Of a stretch of DNA of 64,000 nt, positions 3,655 to 32,055 are shown in pieces (position 1 is the stretch's first letter; every line of letters begins with the position of its first letter). Both the position numbers and the translations under genes were made by a program. Origin of the DNA: a virus (lineage: Duplodnaviria > Caudoviricetes); the IMG/VR virus record IMGVR_UViG_3300031994_000094, positions 1,826 to 65,825 of that record; one strand, 5' to 3'. The notes beneath the pieces were generated by a model that was not told the DNA's origin, ran no database searches, and saw only the letters and a program-made list of their open reading frames with translations.

Positions 3655-4102
3655 TATTCAAGTGGTACAACCAAACCAGCCTGTACTGTTAGACACCACT
3701 ATCGGTTGTCCTAATGGTTATGTTCTTCATCGTGAGGGTAGCGGAATTATCACTTTACGTGGTATTACAAATTGCTGTTTTGCCCGGTATCAAGTCACAT
3801 TTAATGGGAATATTGCTATACCCGATGGTGGTACAGTAGGACCTATCTCTATTGCAATCGCAATAGATGGGGAGCCTGTACTCACCAGTAAAGCAATCGT
3901 AACTCCTGCGGCAACCGCACCAGTACCGCCTACAGAAGATAATTTCTTCAACGTGACAAGTACCGCAATTATTACAGTGCCGAAAGGTTGTTGCTTTAAC
4001 ATTAGCGTAGAGAATACATCTTCTTCTACCACTCCGGCAACAACTCCTGCACCCCCTATCAATGTTCAAAACGCTAACCTCGTTGTTAGTAGAATCGCCT
4101 AA
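3632..4102 (+). CDS. Beta-rich hypothetical protein, BclA-CTD/C1q-like jelly roll suspected (accessory cassette)
   Basis: MSEYTRNDIQVVQPNQPV...HREGSGIITLRG...QNANLVVSRIA; beta-strand pattern; likely true start 3632 rather than 3545. Confidence 0.65.
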   Translation: MSEYTRNDIQVVQPNQPVLLDTTIGCPNGYVLHREGSGIITLRGITNCCFARYQVTFNGNIAIPDGGTVGPISIAIAIDGEPVLTSKAIVTPAATAPVPPTEDNFFNVTSTAIITVPKGCCFNISVENTSSSTTPATTPAPPINVQNANLVVSRIA

Positions 4103-4119
4103 GAAAGGAGAGTAATACT

Positions 4120-4716
4120 ATGTCTAAGAGAATGTATGAAGATTTGAAAGAAATCCTCTGTCATGAACTCAACGAGATTACTCGCAAGGGCGATATTGAC
4201 AGAGAGGGACTTGATGATGTTTACAAACTTTCATCCGCAATTACGATGGTAGAAAGTCTGATGAAGAAACAACAGGGTCAAGGTCAGCAAGGAGAGAGCG
4301 AGTATTCTAATCGCTACTCCAATGACTATTCAAATGAGGGTATGTCCAATGCTTATAGAAGAAGTATGCGTGGCTCTTATGATGGTATGTCTAATAACAT
4401 GGGTACTTCCAATGACTATTCTAATCGTGATGGCTATGCAAACCGTGGTGAACAGTATAGCAGAGATTATAGTATGGATAGTTCATATGAAGGCTCATAT
4501 GACTATAGCGGAAGAAGAGGACGTGACGCACAGACAGGCAGATATGTAAGTCGTGACGGTGGTTCCTATGATAGCTATGATAGCTATGACCGTGGCTATA
4601 GCAGACATACGGCAGAACAGAAAGTAGCACGTAAGCTGGAAGATATGCTTGACACCACACAAGACCAACATATCAGAAATGCTATTATGAAAGCTATGAA
4701 TATGCTCAAACAGTAA
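4120..4716 (+). CDS. Hypothetical protein with Y/S/D/R low-complexity repeats (accessory cassette)
   Basis: RBS AAGGAGAG; YSNDYSN, SYDSYDSYD repeats; GRRGRDAQTGRYVSRD. Confidence 0.75.
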   Translation: MSKRMYEDLKEILCHELNEITRKGDIDREGLDDVYKLSSAITMVESLMKKQQGQGQQGESEYSNRYSNDYSNEGMSNAYRRSMRGSYDGMSNNMGTSNDYSNRDGYANRGEQYSRDYSMDSSYEGSYDYSGRRGRDAQTGRYVSRDGGSYDSYDSYDRGYSRHTAEQKVARKLEDMLDTTQDQHIRNAIMKAMNMLKQ

Positions 4717-4724
4717 TATACTGG

Positions 4725-4752
4725 GAGGGGTGTGAAATATCACCCCTCTTTT
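4725..4752 (+). terminator. Rho-independent terminator
   Basis: GAGGGGTG/CACCCCTC stem plus TTTT. Confidence 0.65.
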
Positions 4753-4763
4753 AGGAGGATAAT

Positions 4764-5141
4764 ATGGTTGACATAACTACTATTGAAGATACATTAGAGG
4801 AACTTGTAAATGACGCACCTACGACCTTTGAAACGTGCGAAAAGATAGCACACCTTACAATTACCCGTGATTTGCTGAAAAGTCGCTTAAATCGAACGAG
4901 AGAGGGGTCAGAACGTGTCTTAAATGAGTTGCATGACATACTACCATCATATAATAAATATGTAGACACAAAAAAGCGGTATCAGCAGTATGAAGTTGTG
5001 GAGCAAATGGTAGTGATAGCTATGCAAAATCTATGTGATGAGATTGCAGATTTCATCATTACTCTATATCGTAACACAGAAAGCGCAGAAGAAAGAGAAG
5101 CAATAGAGACTATGATAGATGAGATAAGAAGTGCAATTTAG
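4764..5141 (+). CDS. Helical hypothetical protein (end of accessory cassette)
   Basis: RBS AGGAGG; 125 aa ORF. Confidence 0.7.
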   Translation: MVDITTIEDTLEELVNDAPTTFETCEKIAHLTITRDLLKSRLNRTREGSERVLNELHDILPSYNKYVDTKKRYQQYEVVEQMVVIAMQNLCDEIADFIITLYRNTESAEEREAIETMIDEIRSAI

Positions 5142-5159
5142 CACTTCTTATTTTTATGC

Positions 5160-5198
5160 TTGACAATAAATAAACATTATAGTACAATGTTTAATGTG
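5160..5198 (+). promoter_or_regulatory. sigmaA promoter with palindromic operator (copy 1)
   Basis: TTGACA-17-TACAAT; TAAACATT-N7-AATGTTTA at 5171-5193. Confidence 0.85.
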
Positions 5199-5237
5199 AA
5201 CACGATTTACCGATAAAACACGAAAAGGAGAATAAAG

Positions 5238-6914
5238 ATGATTAACGTAAGAATAGCAGAAGCAGATAAGTGTAATGAAGATTATTCAATGTTTATATCA
5301 TTCGACTATAATCAGAAGGTAGTTGATACAATCAAGTCTTACCCGACAAAATACTGGAATAAGGGCTCAAAAGAGTGGGAAGTACCGCTGAAAAAACTCA
5401 CAAATCTTATAACTGATTTGAGCGACTTCTCATTTGACATTACAGGAAAGTATGTAGAACTTGAAGCAAAGAAGGCAGAAGTGCCTTCTAATTTCAAGTT
5501 TAAGACAAAACCTTTTGAGCATCAGATTGATGGCTTTAATTATGGTCTTGAAAATGACCGATGGTTACTCGGTGACGAACAGGGGCTTGGAAAAACAAAG
5601 ACGGTTATTGATATAGCAGTTGCAAAAAAACTTGCAAATGGCTATAAGCATTGTCTTGTCATTTGTGGTGTAAATGGTCTGAAATGGAATTGGTACAATG
5701 AGGTGCTTACCCACTCAGATGAGAAGCCTTATATTCTCGGTCAGCGCACCAAAAGAAATGGAATTGCAGTTGGTGGTAATGCAGATAAGCTGGAAGATGT
5801 AAAGAACATTGATAAGATTGATGCTTATTTTATCATCACTAATGTAGAGACTTTGAGAAATACAGAGATTATCGCAGAACTCACAAAGCTATGTAAGAAT
5901 GGCACTATCAATATGATAGCGGCTGATGAATGTCATAAAATGAAGAACCCATCTTCTCAGCAAGGTAAAGCATTCCTCAAATTACAGACTAAAACAATGA
6001 TTGCTATGACGGGGACACCACTGATGAATAACCCTCTCGACCTCTACATCATTCTCAAATGGTTAGGCTATGAGAAGTACCCCATGTATGCTTTCAAAAA
6101 ACACTATTGTGTAATGGGCGGTTTCGGTGGTTATGAGATTATCGGTTATCGTAATCTTGATGAGTTGCAGGAACGCTTAAACGAAATCATGCTTAGAAGA
6201 TTAAAGTCAGATGTACTTGACCTTCCCGAAAAGACATACATTGACGAATATGTAGAAATGACAGCAAAGCAGGCTGTTGTTTATAAAGAGGTTACGGCTG
6301 AAATCAAATCAAATATCGACAATATTAAAATGACTAATAACCCACTCGCAGAACTTATCAGAATGAGACAAGCTACTGGCTATACTGGTATTCTTTCTTC
6401 AACCGTACAGGAATCAGCTAAACTTGATAGAATGGAAGAGTTAGTAGATGATGCTGTTCAGAATGGACATAAAGTGGTTATCTTCTCTAATTGGACACAA
6501 ATGACTAACCCTATTGCACAACGGTTGAGCAGATATAACCCGGCAGTCATTACTGGTGAAATCAATACAGATACTCGTCAGCAGATGATTGATAAGTTTC
6601 AGAATGTGGATTCATGCAAGGTAATTATAGGTACAATCGGTGCTATGGGTACTGGTCTAACATTAACATCGGGTACAGTTGAAATTTTCTTAGACCATCC
6701 GTGGAATAGAGCATTGTATGACCAGGCGGTTGATAGGTGTCATAGAATTGGACAGAAGAATAATGTCACCATTTATAATCTTCTCTGCAAGGATACGATT
6801 GATGAGCGTATTTGGGAAATCGTAAACAAAAAAGGTGCTATGAGCGATTATATGGTTGATGGCAAAGTTGATTCTATGCACAAAATGGAGTTACTTAATT
6901 ATCTTATAGGTTGA
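5238..6914 (+). CDS. SNF2-family helicase
   Basis: LLGDEQGLGKT (motif I), ADECH (II), MTGTP (III), QAVDRCHRIGQ (VI). Confidence 0.92.
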   Translation: MINVRIAEADKCNEDYSMFISFDYNQKVVDTIKSYPTKYWNKGSKEWEVPLKKLTNLITDLSDFSFDITGKYVELEAKKAEVPSNFKFKTKPFEHQIDGFNYGLENDRWLLGDEQGLGKTKTVIDIAVAKKLANGYKHCLVICGVNGLKWNWYNEVLTHSDEKPYILGQRTKRNGIAVGGNADKLEDVKNIDKIDAYFIITNVETLRNTEIIAELTKLCKNGTINMIAADECHKMKNPSSQQGKAFLKLQTKTMIAMTGTPLMNNPLDLYIILKWLGYEKYPMYAFKKHYCVMGGFGGYEIIGYRNLDELQERLNEIMLRRLKSDVLDLPEKTYIDEYVEMTAKQAVVYKEVTAEIKSNIDNIKMTNNPLAELIRMRQATGYTGILSSTVQESAKLDRMEELVDDAVQNGHKVVIFSNWTQMTNPIAQRLSRYNPAVITGEINTDTRQQMIDKFQNVDSCKVIIGTIGAMGTGLTLTSGTVEIFLDHPWNRALYDQAVDRCHRIGQKNNVTIYNLLCKDTIDERIWEIVNKKGAMSDYMVDGKVDSMHKMELLNYLIG

Positions 6915-23752: not shown

Positions 23753-24251
23753 TATGCAGAAGATAGCTGGTATAAGAGAGGATGTAGAAAAGCATTCAAA
23801 GTTTATAGATAATGTTGTAAATGATATCATAAAGCCATATATTAAGGACTTAGATAAGTATGTCAGCTTTATTAAGGATTGTTTGAAAGATGGTGAAAAT
23901 CCACCAACAACAGCAGAACTGGATGATTTTGTTATGAATCTTGCAACTTACATTTACTTTGCAAGCGGGGCATGTGAGCAGTTAGGTATTCGGGATGATA
24001 TAAGCAAAGCTGTGTATAAGGAAATGTATCATAGCAAGCGTTCTGAAATTTCACATGGTACAGTAGCTGATAAGGATAGTATAGCAGAATTGGAAAGTCT
24101 GTCAGAGCAGATAACCAATATAGCTTACAATAGGGCATATAAGACTATGAAAGCAAAGGTAGAGAATGCACAAGAGTTATTGAGTAGTGCAAAGAAAGTG
24201 CTGAGTCACAGACTTCAGGAAATGTCCTTAGTTCAAATGGATACACATTAA
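23733..24251 (+). CDS. Conserved helical phage protein
   Basis: ORF in operon context. Confidence 0.7.
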   Translation: MKISSADMQKIAGIREDVEKHSKFIDNVVNDIIKPYIKDLDKYVSFIKDCLKDGENPPTTAELDDFVMNLATYIYFASGACEQLGIRDDISKAVYKEMYHSKRSEISHGTVADKDSIAELESLSEQITNIAYNRAYKTMKAKVENAQELLSSAKKVLSHRLQEMSLVQMDTH

Positions 24252-24281
24252 GTAAGGTAGAAAAAAGATAGGGGTAGTTGA

Positions 24282-24830
24282 ATGAATAACAACGATAAAG
24301 CGATTATTGTCTTGACAGGATTTTTTGTACTATCAACTCTATCGCTTTTATTTATACCATCAAAAGCACCCGTACAAGACGATTTAAGCACCGAAACAAG
24401 TGTAAGTACAGAAATACTCACAGAGACAGAAAAACCGTATGAAATCGTCACAGAGAGCGTATCAGAGCAAGAAGATACTGATTTGACAGATACATATTTT
24501 ATGGGTGAGCGAATGCACTACTCAAAGCCTTATGAAATTGTAGAATATCCGCTTGCAGTAGATAATGGGTTGGTATTCTTTAGAGGGCACGCAGAAGTAT
24601 GGTACTCAGTCAAAGAAAAAGTTGGTTATACAACAGAGTATAAAATTCCCGGAAAACACGTTGCTGATGATGGTACAATAAGAGATAAAGATGGATACAT
24701 ATGTGCAGCATCAAAAGACTTACCGAAAGGTCATACGCTTTTAACCAGTTTAGGTCCTGGGAAAGTTTATGATAAATGGGAAACAAGTAGAAGTATAGGT
24801 ATTTACACAGATTGGAGGAAAGAAGAATGA
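24282..24830 (+). CDS. N-terminally anchored protein with 3D-like (peptidoglycan-related) domain
   Basis: TM helix, Thr/Glu linker, DGTIRDKDGYICAAS...GKVYD. Confidence 0.55.
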   Translation: MNNNDKAIIVLTGFFVLSTLSLLFIPSKAPVQDDLSTETSVSTEILTETEKPYEIVTESVSEQEDTDLTDTYFMGERMHYSKPYEIVEYPLAVDNGLVFFRGHAEVWYSVKEKVGYTTEYKIPGKHVADDGTIRDKDGYICAASKDLPKGHTLLTSLGPGKVYDKWETSRSIGIYTDWRKEE

Positions 24831-25129
24831 AGCTGATTATTAACACAAAGAAAAAGACAATCGAAGAGAAGCCACATAAGATTGATAGTAAGATAGACCC
24901 AGTTGTAGCAGAGACTATATTAGCCAATCAGCTTGCACTTATAATAGCAACACAAGCACATAGAAATTATAAGAAGAGAGAAGTGCGGGAGCAATATATC
25001 AGAATGGTGTGTTGTTCTGCTATGAGAATACTTGATAAATTGGATAGAAATACATCAGCAGAAGAGAGGCTTCTTAGAAATATCTTTGGAGAAGATAGCA
25101 TTGATAATTTAACGGGAGAAGAAGAATGA
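24827..25129 (+). CDS. Hypothetical protein
   Basis: GGAGG RBS before ATG 24827. Confidence 0.6.
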   Translation: MKLIINTKKKTIEEKPHKIDSKIDPVVAETILANQLALIIATQAHRNYKKREVREQYIRMVCCSAMRILDKLDRNTSAEERLLRNIFGEDSIDNLTGEEE

Positions 25130-27420
25130 AAAAAGCAACAGAAGATTGTTACATCCCTATTACAGAGGAACAGCTTAACGGCGGTGCAGAGTGGGTAAAA
25201 ACCCACAAAGGTACAAACATTGTCGATACTCCTCTGTGGGTGCTTATATCTTTAGGGGTTCAGGCAATACAGGCAGAAAGTGAGGAATAAACATGGAATT
25301 TTTGTATGAGCCAATAAATCCATTTCAAGATGATGGGCTATCAAATAAGGACAGAGAAATGATTAATGCTATGCGTGATACAGCTTATGTATGCGGATAT
25401 AGGGGAGAAGATGTTGAGTTTGCAGTGCATAAGGCATTAAAAAGAATGGGTAGATACGATTTATTGCCGCCGTGTGAGCAAGACAGAAAGTGAGGTGCAG
25501 AATGCAGATAGTGATTGATATATCAGAACGGCGATACAAAGATATACAGAGGATTGCATCGGTGCAACTTAAAAGCAACTACTTTCAAACGGCAGAACAG
25601 ATTATAGCGAGTGGCACACCACTACCAAAAGGACACGGAAACATATATGACGAAAACGATATTAAAAAGAGAATTGAAAATCCGTACCAATGTCAAACTG
25701 TGTTAAATGGACTAAAGTTGATTAAACCAATCTTAGGAGCAGATAATGAATAAGGAAAGGATAATGCATGAATATTTACGATAATTGTAAAAATATAGCG
25801 GAACTAATGGATCAGCATGAACTTGATGTTAGAGCTTGTGAAACATTTGAGTATTTAGGAAAAATTGAAAGATTGAAAGAGACTTTGACAAAAAATATAA
25901 GGAGTTACTGATTGCAGAAAGTGAGGATAATGATGCATATCGTAATTAATATTCCAGAAGAATCCTACAGAGCAACTTGTGATGGATGTATGTTACCACC
26001 GGATGTTGAGAATGTAGTGCAAGGGATTAAGAATGGTACACCACTTCCTAAAGACCGTGCAAAAATAATAGATGATATCGACTTTGCCATCAAGTTAACA
26101 GATGAGCAAGATGATTATAGCATGGGTATGCGCAATGGTATGAGATATGTAAAGAGCCTGATTGATGGCAAAGAACCACAGTATGAATTCAGGCGGACTG
26201 ATGAAGAAATAAAACTTGGGATAAACCTTGGGGATGAGGTGGTTGGTGATTACGGATCAAAAGGTATTGTAGTAGGTATAGACACTTATGAAGGTGAGAT
26301 TTTGTTATCACTTTTGATGAAAAACCATAAAGTGCCTCAACTTGTTAAAGCATCAAGATATAAAACAAAGACAGGCAGACACTTTCCGCAGATTGTAGAA
26401 GTGTTGAAGCAGATGAAAGGAGAAGCAGATGGAAAATAGATTTGTCATGATCCATTGTCCTTATACAGGAAGAAATTATATCTACACCAAAACAATCGTT
26501 AACGGCAAGATTTGTATTGATATAGTAAGGATTGATTAGGAGAAGAAGCATTAAACAGGTAGTCAGATTAGGAGATAACTGTAAAAGATGTTGTTATTTC
26601 GGCAGACAATGCAGAAAGTGAGGAATAAATGCGAAATTACAGATGGTGGTTAAGCCGCAAGAAACGAGTAAGGAAGAAATACACACTACTTCTTGGATGG
26701 TATTATTCTCCGAAAGAAATTAGAGAGTGGTATAACAAGTGGATTGGCAGAAAGTGAGGAAGTAAAATGAAAGTGAAAGATTTAATACATGAATTAAATA
26801 AATTACCGCAAGAGGAGGAGATTGATTTTTGTTCCTATGATAATCATTATGATGTAGAAGTAAAATGGAATATTACAAAAGAAGAATACGAAGAAGGCTA
26901 TACGGATGCACCATACATATATTTAACGAAAATATAACCTTAATATTAAATATTATGTAAGTGGTGTGGTGCAAAGATGAAGGTGGACGGATGATGACAC
27001 GTGAATATGATTGGTTGGTTAACAATAAAAAATGCCCGATGTGTGGAAATACAGAAAGAATACACGCAATCAGTGTATCAAGTGGCACAGGAGACCACTA
27101 TTGGGAAGATACAGAAATCTATTTGCGATGTGGTATATGTTTCTTTGAATCAGACCATTGGAGAAAAAATAGAAGTTGGAAAAAGAAATTGAATAAGAGG
27201 TGGACAAATGATACATAAAGATTGCGGTGGTAAACTAACGGTAATCGAGAGTTTTCAGCAAGAGCGTAAATGCCTACAAATTGTAAGATACAGAAAATGC
27301 CGAAAATGCGGTGTTATTCTCCATTCAATAGAGCAAATACCTGGAGCAGTTATGGAAGTAGGTTATAAACATAGAAATTATAAGCCGGAGGATAAGTATG
27401 ATAAAGATAGAGAAGATTGA
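25126..27420 (+). other. Array of small hypothetical genes (e.g. 25126-25290, 25293-25493, 25502-25753, 25930-26439, 26961-27218, 27208-27420), several with Cys zinc motifs
   Basis: Tightly packed ORFs with RBSs; shared boundary motif. Confidence 0.65.
25273..26760 (+). repeat. Five dispersed copies of the gene-boundary motif (G)CAGAAAGTGAGG(A)
   Basis: At 25273, 25484, 25914, 26611, 26747; each is followed within about 3-8 nt by a start codon. Confidence 0.85.
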
Positions 27421-28636
27421 AACATGGGGATTTGACCATGCCATTAGAGGTATGCGTAATCCAATGAATAGTTGGAATAAGAGTGACAGTACAATAGATA
27501 TGATACAAGGGAATAAAGTAGGATATCATATAGGCAAAAATGATTTAGACCTTATGCGTAGACTATATAAAGCAGGACATCCTCATAGAAAATATCTCAG
27601 ACAGATAATAGCGAGCATGGATATCACAGCACCGCTTTACTGGATTTCTGAATTTGATACTTATAAAGTTGGCGTTACAAGAAATAGTTGTTCTTTTATG
27701 CACAAAGGTGTATCTAAATTATTTGAAATAACTGATTTTTCAATTCATGATGATAGAGTATATGATGTACTATCTCCATTACTCAAAAAAGAATATAAGT
27801 TGAAATATCCCTATGAGACAGAAGATTACAAGAAATATACTTGTGAAAATGGTAGGGAGTATAGGGTGTATAAAAATGGTAAAGTATTTGCTGAACCTTT
27901 TGAGTACACCGATACAATGGGGAGAAATCGTAAGTTTGAGTTAACAGAATGTAAACCATCTAAAACAAATTCCGGCTATTATGAATTACACATGGGTGGA
28001 AGAAATGGTGAAAAATGGTTACTCCATAAATTAGTTGCTACTGTATGGTTAGACAATAGAGATAATTTATACACTGTTAATCATATAGATGGGGATAAAG
28101 GGAATAATTCAGTTGAAAATCTTGAATGGTGTAGTTTAGCGGATAATATAAAAAAGGGATTTGAAACTGGTTTATATGATAATAATAATTCATTACACAC
28201 AAAATATATTAAATGGAAAAATGGTCATACTATTGTTAATCCATTTGTTAAACAGCAGATATTATTAGACCATCGAAATGGACTAACTTGTGGTAAGTTA
28301 TCTGAAAAATACGATATAACTATTAGTCAGGCTAATAATATAATTTGTGATAACAATAATGAGTTATTTATGCTTTGCTACACTTGGGAACAGATTATTG
28401 ATGAGTTGAATAGATTGCGTAGTATTTATTTGGATACAAAAGACGAGTCTATATTTCAACAAATAAGATGTTTATTACCATGTGGATATAATCTTAAATT
28501 CACAGTTACAATGAATTATGAGAATATAGTTAATATGATCCAGTACCGTAGTGACCATAAGTTAGATGAGTGGAGAATATTCTGTGAAACTATGGTAGCC
28601 GAATTGCCGTACTTAAAGGAGATTATAAATGACTGA
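27398..28636 (+). CDS. thyX: ThyX-like thymidylate synthase with an in-frame HNH endonuclease insertion
   Basis: RGMRNPMNSW, RKYLRQI..MDITAPLYW..EFDTY, NSCSFMHK, LLPCGYN, HKLDEW; insert carries HKLVA...VNHIDGDKGNNSVENLEWC. Confidence 0.75.
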   Translation: MIKIEKIETWGFDHAIRGMRNPMNSWNKSDSTIDMIQGNKVGYHIGKNDLDLMRRLYKAGHPHRKYLRQIIASMDITAPLYWISEFDTYKVGVTRNSCSFMHKGVSKLFEITDFSIHDDRVYDVLSPLLKKEYKLKYPYETEDYKKYTCENGREYRVYKNGKVFAEPFEYTDTMGRNRKFELTECKPSKTNSGYYELHMGGRNGEKWLLHKLVATVWLDNRDNLYTVNHIDGDKGNNSVENLEWCSLADNIKKGFETGLYDNNNSLHTKYIKWKNGHTIVNPFVKQQILLDHRNGLTCGKLSEKYDITISQANNIICDNNNELFMLCYTWEQIIDELNRLRSIYLDTKDESIFQQIRCLLPCGYNLKFTVTMNYENIVNMIQYRSDHKLDEWRIFCETMVAELPYLKEIIND

Positions 28637-28865
28637 TACACGTAAATATGGTAATTCGTGGAAACGAAAGCGGGATAAGTATATAGCCACGCATAAGAAC
28701 TGCGAATTATGTCTTATGAATATGAACATATCAAAAGCTACAGAAGTACATCATATTGTACCTATAAGCAGAGGCGGTACACATGAAGATTCAAACTTAA
28801 TGGCACTTTGTCATGAGTGTCATGCGTGGATACATTTAAGAGAACAGAAAGGAGAGAATAAATGA
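28629..28865 (+). CDS. Small HNH endonuclease (gp74-like)
   Basis: CELC...EVHHIVPISRGG..NLMALCHECH. Confidence 0.88.
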   Translation: MTDTRKYGNSWKRKRDKYIATHKNCELCLMNMNISKATEVHHIVPISRGGTHEDSNLMALCHECHAWIHLREQKGENK

Positions 28866-29227
28866 GTGACAATGTAAATGCACCCAGTCATTATTGTACT
28901 GGCAAGTTTGAGTGTATCGAGGTAATGGAAGAGGTGTTCGGTAAAGAAGCAGTAGAACATTTCTGTTTGTGTAATGCTTTTAAGTATCTGTACCGTACTA
29001 ACAAGAAGAACGGCATAGAAGATATTCAGAAAGCACAGTGGTATATCAATAAGTATCTTGTGTTAGAAGGTGTTTCAGCTACAAATATGAAGTATAAGCC
29101 TGAAGATCCAACTTTCAATGGTTGTAGTGATTGTAAATTCGTAGATTGTGATGAGCATGAGGAGCCATGTAGAAATTGTAAGTATAACAAAGTGAGTCAT
29201 TATGTATATGGGGGAAAAGAAGTATGA
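28862..29227 (+). CDS. DUF3310-like protein
   Basis: VNAPSHY...ECIE...NAFKYLYR...EDIQKAQWY. Confidence 0.8.
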   Translation: MSDNVNAPSHYCTGKFECIEVMEEVFGKEAVEHFCLCNAFKYLYRTNKKNGIEDIQKAQWYINKYLVLEGVSATNMKYKPEDPTFNGCSDCKFVDCDEHEEPCRNCKYNKVSHYVYGGKEV

Positions 29228-30267
29228 GTTTAACAGAGGTTATGAGAGACTTTAATAAGAAGTTTAAGGAAGATTTGGTGCATAAGGGTTTGCCAGAGTA
29301 TGACTATGAGAGAATACCATTTACCAGCCCTCGACTTAATTATATGACATTTGGTGGTTTACCGAAGGGAAAATTAATTGAGTTCTATGGTGAAGAACAT
29401 GGCGGTAAGACTACAACAGCACTTGATGTAGTGGCTAATTATCAGCACTCAGATGATGAGCGTAAGGTTTTATGGATTGACTGTGAGAATACTCTTGATA
29501 TTGTGTGGGCTGGTAAACTGGGAGTTGATGCTGAAGATATGATTATTATGAATCCTACTAATCAAGGTGCAGAATCAATCTTTCAGTTTATTCTGGATTC
29601 AATAGATACTGGTGAAGTAGGTCTTGTAGTAATTGACAGCTTTGGCGTTATGGTATCTAATCAAGCTATGGATAAATCCGTAGAGGATAAAACTTATGGT
29701 GGTATTGCTATGCCATTAACACAGTTTAGTGACAAGGCAGTTGGTTTATGTCAGCGACATAAGTGTACAGTTATTGGACTTAATCAGCTTCGTGACGATA
29801 TAGGTAGTATGTATGGCGGTACAAAGACCGTTGGCGGTAGAGGCTGGAGGCATGATTGTTCTGTAAGACTTGAATTTAGAATGGGCAAATACATAGATGA
29901 TAAGAACAAAGAGTTAACAAGAGGTGCAGAAAACCCAGCTGGAAATATTGTTATGGTGTCGATGAAGAAGAATAAGACTTGTCCACCAACACGTAGAATA
30001 GGATTTTATACACTTAAATACAATAGTGGCATTGATTACATCTCAGATTTAATAGAGGTAGCTATTAAGTATGGCATTATTGAGAAAGCCGGAGCATGGT
30101 TTACAATCGTTAATATCAATACTGGTGAGATTATCAAAGATAAACTGCAAGGGCAGAATAATGTTGTTAAAGCGTTAGATGATGCTGAGATTTTGAAAGC
30201 AGTGGAAGAGTTAATAGATTGTCCCATGGAAAAAGATGAAGAACTTGACACAGACACAAACGAATGA
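29224..30267 (+). CDS. recA: RecA-family recombinase
   Basis: GEEHGGKTT, VIDS, LNQLR, GGRGWRHDCSVRLE, KAGAWF. Confidence 0.93.
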   Translation: MSLTEVMRDFNKKFKEDLVHKGLPEYDYERIPFTSPRLNYMTFGGLPKGKLIEFYGEEHGGKTTTALDVVANYQHSDDERKVLWIDCENTLDIVWAGKLGVDAEDMIIMNPTNQGAESIFQFILDSIDTGEVGLVVIDSFGVMVSNQAMDKSVEDKTYGGIAMPLTQFSDKAVGLCQRHKCTVIGLNQLRDDIGSMYGGTKTVGGRGWRHDCSVRLEFRMGKYIDDKNKELTRGAENPAGNIVMVSMKKNKTCPPTRRIGFYTLKYNSGIDYISDLIEVAIKYGIIEKAGAWFTIVNINTGEIIKDKLQGQNNVVKALDDAEILKAVEELIDCPMEKDEELDTDTNE

Positions 30268-30273
30268 TAGTAT
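30245..30273 (+). promoter_or_regulatory. Candidate sigmaA promoter at the end of recA
   Basis: TTGACA-17-TAGTAT, about 40 nt before a terminator. Confidence 0.5.
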
Positions 30274-30313
30274 GTAATTGCTCATAGAGTTACCCCCACT
30301 CATATATTGAGAG

Positions 30314-30359
30314 ATGTGCAAGTAAGCAACAGCTACAACTTACTTGCACATTTTTTTTT
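30314..30359 (+). terminator. Rho-independent terminator
   Basis: 13-bp stem ATGTGCAAGTAAG/CTTACTTGCACAT plus T-run. Confidence 0.85.
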
Positions 30360-30368
30360 ATTTTATGC

Positions 30369-30407
30369 TTGACACAGTATAAACATGGTAGTATAATGTT
30401 TAATGTA
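30369..30407 (+). promoter_or_regulatory. sigmaA promoter with operator (copy 4)
   Basis: TTGACA-17-TATAAT-GTTTAATGTA. Confidence 0.85.
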
Positions 30408-30451
30408 AACAGAAACTTACTGAAACTTAAAACAGAAAGGAGAGATAAGAA

Positions 30452-30619
30452 ATGTTCATTTGCGCTGATTGTCTACACGCATTTGAAAGAGCAAGCAGAC
30501 ATATTGACCGAGAAACATACGAAGAAATATATTGTTGCCCGGTCTGTGGTAGTGACAATATTGAATTTGTCAGAAAGGATGATGCGAATGATAAGTCTGA
30601 TGAAAGACTGGAAAGGTAA
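30452..30619 (+). CDS. Small zinc-ribbon protein (not in the ORF track)
   Basis: AAGGAG RBS; MFICADC...CPVCGSDNI. Confidence 0.7.
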   Translation: MFICADCLHAFERASRHIDRETYEEIYCCPVCGSDNIEFVRKDDANDKSDERLER

Positions 30620-31181
30620 GGTTGTAGTAAACGATACAGAATACGATTCAATACAAGACGCTATGAGCGCATTTAAGACACTTTCGGGTGATATACATAT
30701 AATTCTCAAGTCAGCGAAGAAAAGACCCGAAAAACAGACGATAGAGCAGTCAGAAGATGCAACAGAATATGAAGTCACAGTGAAGCAGTATATGACTAAA
30801 AAAGCTACACCCGATTTTGACTTCATGGCAAAGTGGAATAATAATAATCCGATGCCAATGAGAATCATGAGAGGGACAGTTGAGAAAGAAACTCGTGGCA
30901 TGATTTATATGAATCTTCATGGGTTTGCTCAAGAGACAATTACTTGTGCTTGTTGTGGTAAAGAGTTAACCAACCCTGTCAGCAGATACTATGGTATAGG
31001 ACCTATCTGTTTAGATAAACTGGGTATCGCAAGAGACATAGACGATGTTAAGAATATCAAGGAAGATTTGGTTAACATAACTTGGTCGGGTTGGGTTATT
31101 CGCAGCAGTATCGTTGATAAGAAAGAGGTTATTCGTAGACAAAATCAATTAAAGTCTATTAGCGATAGAAAGGAGATTTAA
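30588..31181 (+). CDS. Hypothetical protein with DUF6011-like zinc motif
   Basis: CACCGKELTNPVSRYYGIGPIC; likely start 30588. Confidence 0.65.
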   Translation: MISLMKDWKGKVVVNDTEYDSIQDAMSAFKTLSGDIHIILKSAKKRPEKQTIEQSEDATEYEVTVKQYMTKKATPDFDFMAKWNNNNPMPMRIMRGTVEKETRGMIYMNLHGFAQETITCACCGKELTNPVSRYYGIGPICLDKLGIARDIDDVKNIKEDLVNITWSGWVIRSSIVDKKEVIRRQNQLKSISDRKEI

Positions 31182-31184
31182 TTT

Positions 31185-31754
31185 ATGGGAGCATCAGGTA
31201 AAGAGTTTGTAGTACCAAATGGTGAGAAGATTTGGGAAGGTATCAAGAAGAGTGGTATCACGCAGGATAAGTTATCGGTAATGGTTCTTGGTAAGAATGC
31301 CGCATTCATCAGTCAGAGTATATCTCGTGGCACATTTGATGCAGAGCAGTTACAGAAACTTTGCTCATTCTTAGGTATTGATTATGAAGAGTGCATACTT
31401 AAAGAAGTACCTAAGAAAGAAGAATCTGTGAAGAAGGATGAGAAGTTAGCAGATGCAACCCCACATCTTGAAACTCTGATTGTAGGCATGAATACCATGT
31501 ATGAGATGCAGAAAGAATATAATACTACATTAAAGGATTTACTGGTTGAAATTAAAGCACTCAATGCAAAGCAGAATCGTATTGAGAATGCTCTGGGACA
31601 GTTGGTACAGAATAGCATTATAACCAAAGAGAATACCAACAAGATATGTGATTCAGCAAATTCCATTCGTAGTCAGTTGAATCTTGCAAATGGCAGACTG
31701 AAAGATTTGGTAGATGAAGTAAAGAGAAATGAAAAGACCTACAAGGTGGTATAG
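31185..31754 (+). CDS. XRE-like HTH plus coiled-coil protein
   Basis: GITQDKLSVMVLGKNAAFISQ; heptad C-terminus. Confidence 0.6.
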   Translation: MGASGKEFVVPNGEKIWEGIKKSGITQDKLSVMVLGKNAAFISQSISRGTFDAEQLQKLCSFLGIDYEECILKEVPKKEESVKKDEKLADATPHLETLIVGMNTMYEMQKEYNTTLKDLLVEIKALNAKQNRIENALGQLVQNSIITKENTNKICDSANSIRSQLNLANGRLKDLVDEVKRNEKTYKVV

Positions 31755-32055
31755 CAGTAGACAGGAGAAAGCAGTTGCAAAAGCTATTGGTGGTAAACAA
31801 ACCGCCAATAGTGGTGCAACCGCATTTTCAAAGGGGGATGTAACTACAGATAATTGGCTCATCGAATGTAAGACAGCGACTTCTGAAAAGCAATCCTTTT
31901 CCATAAAAAGAGACTGGTTAAAAAAGAATAAGGAAGAAGCGTTTAGCATGGGTAAAGATTATAATGCACTTGTATTTGATTTTGGCGATAATGGTGAACG
32001 CTACTATATAGTTGATGAGAGAACATTCAAACTGCTAAAGGAGGGGCAGATATGA
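31729..32055 (+). CDS. PD-(D/E)XK nuclease / resolvase-like protein
   Basis: KGDV...LIECKT. Confidence 0.7.
   Translation: MKRPTRWYSSRQEKAVAKAIGGKQTANSGATAFSKGDVTTDNWLIECKTATSEKQSFSIKRDWLKKNKEEAFSMGKDYNALVFDFGDNGERYYIVDERTFKLLKEGQI

Follow-up and report, generated by a model that had tools for sequence, protein, structure and literature searches.

How does a homing endonuclease come to sit in the middle of a phage gene that carries no sign of an intron or an intein? Textbook homing endonucleases inside coding sequences ride on self-splicing introns or inteins, so that the host gene survives, and free-standing ones lie between genes or split them. This question is raised by the open reading frame (ORF) at positions 27398-28636 of the window studied here, a stretch of 64,000 nucleotides (nt) that makes up almost the whole of a 65.8-kilobase (kb) IMG/VR virus record (IMGVR_UViG_3300031994_000094, Caudoviricetes; estimated completeness 96%). 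An earlier note, made from the sequence alone, took this ORF for an HNH endonuclease fused in frame into a surface loop of a ThyX-like enzyme, without splicing. Having followed this up computationally, we consider it probable (roughly 70%) that the ORF holds an in-frame homing-endonuclease cassette which a permissive loop of the host protein tolerates and which, free of splicing, is expressed as one of that protein's domains. Our reasons are a single uninterrupted frame, a predicted host fold that closes around the insert, strict conservation of the nuclease residues, the lack of splicing signatures and the patchy presence of the cassette among closely related alleles.

A complete cassette within one open reading frame

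The ORF encodes 412 amino acids (aa) on the plus strand, and its sole evident translation start is the ATG at 27398, 5 nt downstream of a Shine-Dalgarno sequence read from the DNA (GGAGGA, 27387-27392). We describe it as a host protein of ThyX fold that harbours an HNH cassette, on the basis of an AlphaFold2 model (see below) and of the PHROGs families, where phrog_6721 (218 positions, function unknown) matches the ORF in two separate stretches (E 6.6e-54) with several HNH-endonuclease PHROGs lying between them. The alignment with insert-less homologues that the earlier note had proposed as a check defines the insert. These homologues (207-222 aa), which include proteins from deposited phage records such as Clostridium phage phiCTP1 ORF68 and Bajarodcaudo virus 5, place it after an invariant D-F-S (residues 113-115), the last conserved motif of the host N-terminal half (residues 1-119; 27398-27754), and before a conserved W330-E331 in the host C-terminal half (residues 323-412 and the stop codon; 28364-28636). 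The insert itself, which we call type A, is missing in empty alleles and covers residues ~120-322 (203 codons; 27755-28363), so that of the span of residues 120-328 first suggested the start holds and the C-terminal end is slightly narrower.

There is no stop across the 203 insert codons in the host frame as compared with 7-43 in the other five frames, and the chance of an open frame of this length at the local base composition is ~1.5e-9. A separate HNH product made from an internal start was considered and, as a general mechanism, rejected, since the 119 type A fused homologues that we used for residue and flank counts have no conserved Met close to where the insert begins. In the sense of a single open frame with no conserved internal start, the reading frame thus shows a cassette translated from the host ribosome-binding site as part of one 412-aa chimera. 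A search of the same genome revealed no paralogous copy of the cassette.

Within the insert, a beta-rich DNA-binding part, an HNH core and a helix-turn-helix (HTH) tail can be told apart. The core (residues ~205-255; 28010-28162), delimited by Pfam HNH_3 and by conservation, contains H210, H229, K234, N237, N241 and N250. That its HNH motif is complete, as the earlier note has it, is confirmed by the HNH_3 match at residues 225-250 (E 9e-6; 25.6 bits, cut-off 24.8) and by a phmmer match to I-HmuI (1u3e; E 2.8e-5). In the model, residues 142-260 can be laid over the N-terminal portion of I-HmuI (Z 12.6, root-mean-square deviation (rmsd) 2.3, 104 residues), which is the top match of the insert by structure as well as by sequence. 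The NUMOD4-like segment of the earlier note falls in a region that superposes on I-HmuI and is significant by Pfam in relatives, though not in the window protein itself. The tail (residues ~275-320; 28220-28357) is a putative DNA-binding module whose HTH-like nature, also foreseen, is seen in the window protein by structure only, through a weak resemblance to the HTH of gamma-delta resolvase (Z 5.9; 42 residues, rmsd 1.6); HTH_38 and HTH_7 are matched in the inserts of relatives. In the databases, the insert is closest to HNH genes that stand free in phage genomes, with 30-40% identity.

A ThyX fold without the ThyX signature

The AlphaFold2 model, based on a 41-sequence alignment, has a mean predicted local distance difference test score of 84 and a predicted template modelling score of 0.58. 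Taken together, both host halves match best Helicobacter pylori ThyX (Z 13.2, rmsd 3.4, 187/209 residues aligned) and also Thermotoga maritima ThyX (Z ~12, 190/217 residues), with alignments of 187-192 residues that span both halves; the UMP/dUMP methylase PolB is also matched, and ~48 ThyX or PolB entries are found at Z 10.8-13.2. The model, a check that the earlier note had likewise put forward, accordingly keeps a ThyX fold around a separate I-HmuI-like domain: an intact fold is predicted to close around a complete I-HmuI-like excursion.

By sequence, the kinship is fainter. The sole sequence-level Thy1 signal lies in the C-terminal half, where Pfam Thy1 matches residues 330-403 just under its cut-off (E 4.6e-5; 23.7 bits against 24.8); a six-frame search of the genome gives 25.4 bits for PF02511, again from the C-terminal part alone, and the NCBIfam model thyX (TIGR02170) reaches 17 bits against a cut-off of 87.9. 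Thy1 is matched at E<=0.01 in 10/35 empty homologues. Because a profile built from these 35 host proteins found no ThyX when run against PDB sequences, the relation to ThyX rests on the fold and the borderline Pfam match.

ThyX enzymes carry the signature R-H-R-x7-8-S...S-x-R, which serves the binding of deoxyuridine monophosphate and flavin adenine dinucleotide. At the corresponding position, aligned by eye on the flanking A-P-hydrophobic motif, the window protein has T88-Y89-K90 followed by S97-C-S99-F-M-H; no R-H-R is among the family invariants, and the signature as a whole is missing. Near the C-terminus, the region of R384 and H387 resembles the ThyX C-terminal motif. So the label ThyX-like is justified by the fold of both halves (Z 12-13) and weakly by sequence, a canonical ThyX it is not, and with R-H-R absent the term bifunctional, used in the earlier note, is unproven for the host half. 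The gene belongs to a module for nucleotide metabolism and recombination, in a phage genome in which we searched for, and did not find, ThyA or a second Thy1 match. Its family (phrog_6721) comprises 4594 representative clusters at E<=1e-3, many members being extended C-terminally to 300-400 aa.

Searches for introns and inteins

Might the insert be removed by RNA or protein splicing of an unrecognised kind, or by proteolytic processing? General precedent speaks for this, as homing endonucleases in genes usually travel with introns or inteins. The authors who described the ShiLan element of actinobacteriophages (see below) leave the same possibility for their case (PMC11855218). The chimeric protein, however, matches no Hint or intein Pfam family at E<=1, and positions 26800-29300 match no Rfam intron at E<=10, only chance snoRNA-like hits being returned. 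Positions 119-120 are D/E/K and then R in the 119 homologues, so no Cys/Ser/Thr nucleophile opens the insert, and a second type of insert (type B, see below) begins with E. At its other end, the insert closes with E/D-L-F-x-x-C/A-Y-x followed by W-E, without His-Asn and with a +1 residue that is variable or W rather than a conserved nucleophile. The best 50 structural matches are ThyX chains, I-HmuI and two HTH proteins, and no intein is among those listed. Nor is there room for a non-coding ribozyme core, because the host frame runs open through all of the insert, which is conserved as a protein in the 119 homologues; no other frame of the insert hides an ORF, unlike in the ShiLan element. 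In all, the Pfam scan is in keeping with the missing Hint block that the earlier note had pointed out, and the missing His-Asn-Cys/Ser/Thr junction is borne out by the junction residues of the homologues, just as the lack of a group I intron is by the negative Rfam scan and the stop-free 203 codons. To us, cryptic splicing is therefore a very improbable explanation.

Spread and conservation of the fused form

A word-indexed search returned >120 clusters of proteins of 404-467 aa that cover the whole query at 50-92% identity. They stem from ENA, Logan, JGI and NCBI assemblies, and one, in a Blautia metagenome-assembled genome, is annotated 'HNH endonuclease'. H229, K234, N237, N241 and N250 are invariant in 119/119 type A copies and H210 is kept in 118/119, which shows, as far as sequence comparison goes, that the catalytic residues of the cassette are under strict purifying selection. 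The host invariants are likewise kept. Mean pairwise identity among 41 fused homologues (alignment A2) is 60% for the host parts and 53% for the insert, the latter dropping to ~39% at its lowest.

These data bear on whether the ORF could be a chance fusion, a product of misassembly or a decaying pseudogene in which neither half functions. One may suspect as much from a host half devoid of the canonical ThyX catalytic motif and from a genome that is a metagenome-assembled virus record. Yet >100 independent assemblies are built alike, without stops and with residues conserved in host and insert, they are not near-duplicates of one sample given their four sources and range of identities, and the missing R-H-R is a trait of the whole family of 4594 clusters, empty alleles included. 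At the level of sequence, a layout conserved in 119 diverged homologues excludes an artefact or a decaying chimera; the conservation data thus refute in practice the case, raised in the earlier note, of a protein inactive in both functions, and we regard this as the least credible of the explanations considered.

The fused form is nonetheless the minority state. Inserts are present in ~7 of the top 150 representative clusters of the host family, most members having none, and most clusters with a split match to the host profile carry NUMOD4, HNH_3 and HTH. Megablast of window positions 24000-32000 against GenBank phages gave no match, and in tblastn neither the type A nor the type B chimera was covered to >=80% by any deposited phage record. 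No cultured system is available, since the fused form is in none of these records.

Filled and empty alleles

The earlier note saw the nuclease as a permanent domain. This part of its proposal fails: the cassette is polymorphic and truncated remnants of it exist. Many empty homologues are as close to the host part of the window protein as fused ones are. A tree of host columns places 102 empty proteins in one clade (support 0.96) and, in the other, 118 fused proteins together with 12 empty ones nested at ~8 places; Fitch parsimony counts 9 changes. In four fused/empty pairs (P0020/P0208, P0034/P0171, P0009/P0140, P0059/P0187), the host parts are 85-93% identical, and a short loop of 6-15 residues, unrelated to the cassette, takes its place in the empty allele. 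The P0009/P0140 pair is essentially identical in the N-terminal flank up to the junction, diverged over the next ~27 residues and nearly identical over the remainder. Between S115 and N338, the spread of 17-37 residues among empty alleles marks the insert site as a length-tolerant loop; fused proteins have 222-231 residues there, with no intermediates in the sample. An IMG/VR scan with the empty allele P0171 gave nothing closer than 61%.

Diverged motifs next to the insert, as suspected in the earlier note, are indeed found: F100, G104, F353 and R357 are present in 118-119/119 fused type A proteins as opposed to 12-13/114 sampled empty ones. R357, which maps by eye to ThyX R147, is the residue of type A hosts, and most empty members have I there.

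Incongruence between host and insert trees was rejected as evidence of mobility. In approximately unbiased (AU) tests on 41 sequences, the two trees reject each other (delta lnL 343-405), but so do the controls, in which the N-terminal and C-terminal halves of the host, or those of the insert, were compared (delta lnL 156-216).

At the DNA level, IMG/VR scans yielded further fused loci with at least three insert lineages in one loop; the loci of one such scan, L174 not among them, are 35-48% identical to the window protein. Type A, as in the window, is found in L005-L008, type B, a different I-HmuI-like enzyme with HTH, in ~27 loci (e.g. L150), and type C in L174. One comparison is that of L150 (type B, 401 aa) with the empty L178 (242 aa). 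Over a collinear 8.3 kb with 93-95% identity, the cassette appears as a clean in-frame indel of 495 nt (165 codons) with identical protein on both sides and an imperfect TAY-AAA repeat at both junctions. L174 (type C) and the empty L184 share 128 virtually identical N-terminal codons up to the insertion point; the ~45 codons that follow the insert are strongly diverged (76% nucleotide identity), and then the flanks are 98% identical. Between L007 (type A) and L184, flanks are 94-99% identical and divergence sets in near codon 84 and lasts through the rest of the gene. L007 and L012 (type B) carry different cassettes between flanks that are 97% identical. From these alignments, the pattern is what would be expected of a cassette copied by recombination along with adjacent exon sequence. 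They also show a cassette that, judged by its distribution, is polymorphic among close alleles and, in relatives, among near-isogenic phages, and at least three diverged HNH lineages that, by alignment, occupy the same loop of this family.

A few observations on these loci stand on their own. In a set with flanks that are 94-99% identical (L007, L012, L155-L160, L174, L184, L186), the ThyX-like gene is either empty or filled with type A, B or C, and small extra genes and a PAPS-reductase-like gene are swapped nearby as well, making this a local recombination hotspot. L150 and L178 also differ almost wholly over codons ~27-70 (L150:4001-4200 versus L178:4001-4220), the first variable loop, a mosaic patch independent of the cassette. 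Finally, in L172 (IMG/VR UViG_3300045988_167376, positions 3776-5528), a free-standing HNH gene lies just upstream of the type B-filled ThyX-like gene, preceded by a short ORF in which, by eye, the first ~19 ThyX-like codons are fused to an AP2-like segment; this gene seems to have been struck by two different endonuclease elements, with its 5' end duplicated.

Two homologues carry a degraded cassette. P0315 (286 aa) keeps both ends and the HTH tail of type A with the HNH core lost, and P0387 (390 aa) lacks H210 and the greater part of the tail. Such remnants fit the life cycle of a selfish element better than they fit an indispensable domain.

This matters for an alternative that sees the insert as a former homing cassette now kept for the benefit of the phage, be it to cut DNA of competing phages or of the host or to act together with the nucleotide enzyme of ThyX fold, its distribution being due to module exchange and not to homing. 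Catalytic residues intact in all of the 119 sampled copies, an insert divergence that is deep (identity to ~39%) and similar to that of the host parts, and the place of the gene in a nucleotide-metabolism and recombination module would suit such a domesticated domain, and an intron endonuclease that aids phage competition has been described (PMC11620839). Hard to square with it are, besides the HNH-core-less remnants, the empty alleles in close relatives, the insert-free majority of the family (~7 of the top 150 clusters filled) and the three HNH lineages swapped in one loop among near-isogenic phages. We consider domestication unlikely as the full explanation, although it is compatible with a homing cassette and the two are not exclusive.

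Neighbouring genes and further variable sites

Directly downstream of the chimera (28629-30267) follow a gene for a 78-aa HNH protein, which overlaps the chimera stop by 8 nt, a DUF3310/nucleotide-kinase-like gene (phrog_236) and a UvsX-like recombinase gene (phrog_97). A recombinase of this kind beside a homing cassette would be convenient for repair-mediated copying. The host protein has a second variable loop near its N-terminus (residues 32-45; window ~27490-27535), which also varies in homologues P0034, P0140, L005 and L011. In some homologues, this loop holds Cys-rich inserts of ~20-30 residues (e.g. P0034 versus P0171), and in representative P0280 an in-frame insert of ~90 residues, which makes it another permissive site.

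How the cassette may persist

Splicing scans, the structural model, conservation, patchiness and the indel in relatives together support the core claim of the earlier note, a non-splicing HNH homing endonuclease in a ThyX-like loop. How such an element might move can be outlined as follows. During mixed infection, the HNH domain of the chimera would nick or cut an empty allele near the site that encodes the loop; recombinational repair, perhaps aided by the UvsX-like recombinase encoded downstream, would then copy the cassette with some tens of flanking codons; and with a host protein that tolerates the extra domain, neither an intron nor an intein would be needed.

Several points weigh against this reading. 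Our comparisons include no near-isogenic empty genome of the window lineage, and it is in other phages, with types A, B and C, that the indel is seen in the DNA. Computation is also our sole ground for translation as one chimera, for a product neither spliced nor cut by proteases, and for the activity and target specificity of the nuclease. Type A copies that are intact in 119/119 cases and about as diverged as their host are also what a long-retained useful domain would look like. I-HmuI-type enzymes are elongated DNA binders, and tethering at both ends may keep the domain from engaging DNA. Furthermore, the flank haplotype with R357 may mark a functional subfamily and not a co-conversion tract, and the AU results, which reflect either pervasive mosaicism or an over-sensitive test, are uninformative.

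If a tolerated homing cassette is nevertheless what the ORF contains, nature would hold a large family, still active, whose members merely put up with the nuclease as an extra domain, implying that splicing is not needed for persistence in an ORF. Such a family would be a natural test of which loops in proteins can take up a domain of 200 residues, its many pairs of filled and empty alleles would allow the target sites of new I-HmuI-like enzymes to be deduced, and the cassette could be used as a marker of recombination between uncultured gut phages. There is a warning for annotation, too, as these genes are at present labelled only 'HNH endonuclease' or 'hypothetical', and such labels hide the ThyX-fold host.

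One may go a step further and envisage a guild of at least three HNH lineages that compete for one permissive ThyX-fold loop, each being expressed only as an internal domain. On this extension we are evenly divided. If correct, in-frame 'domain parasitism' would be a third general way of life for intragenic homing endonucleases, beside introns and inteins, and homing would be the work of the chimera itself, which might make use of oligomerisation of its ThyX-like scaffold.

Comparison with known systems

We found no paper that describes a ThyX-fold/HNH chimera, and elements of this kind have only recently been recognised. Among 'genes in pieces', nrdA of Aeromonas phage Aeh1 is split by mobE, a homing endonuclease gene that sits in a nucleotide-metabolism gene without an intron or an intein and with the host function presumed kept. 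There, two polypeptides result, whereas the window chimera is kept as a single one. I-HmuI (intron-encoded, Bacillus phage SPO1) and the free-standing HNH_3 endonucleases of Firmicutes phages share with the cassette a similar H...N-H...N...N core and a C-terminal helical or HTH tail. They are, however, separate polypeptides made from intron ORFs or free-standing genes, while the cassette is tethered at both ends and has no start or stop of its own.

Genes of the ThyX fold are known to be invaded by in-frame selfish elements in the form of the ThyX inteins from mycobacteriophages and bacteria (Kelley et al. 2016, PMC5050341). Those inteins have Hint blocks and junction nucleophiles and are sited in the catalytic motif; the window insert matches no Hint family at E<=1, lacks the junction nucleophiles and occupies a variable loop downstream of the motif region. 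In-frame fusions to the host gene, as here, have also been noted for rps3 and LAGLIDADG endonucleases in fungal mitochondria, according to a one-sentence citation of Gibb & Hausner 2005 in PMC7902536, though endonuclease family and genome type differ.

The closest precedents are the ShiLan domain with its 'hidden HNH' and lone LAGLIDADG insertions, all in DNA methylases of actinobacteriophages (Arsenault, Gosselin & Gogarten 2025, PMC11855218; Gosselin et al. 2023, PMC9957025). The lone in-frame LAGLIDADG methylase insertion is described there as apparently vertically inherited. ShiLan resembles the window cassette in being an insertion into a phage gene that leaves the host frame open, lacks a detectable intein or intron and has a disjunct distribution suggestive of homing; its insert, too, is predicted to loop out of the host fold, and the evidence is computational in that case as well. 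The two differ in host gene, in phage group, the window and its relatives being metagenomic phages of a gut Firmicutes type, and in the endonuclease, which here is I-HmuI-like with an HTH. They also differ in how the nuclease would be made: the HNH of ShiLan is out of frame and needs a start of its own, whereas that of the window is encoded in the host frame, the other frames being closed by 7-43 stops.

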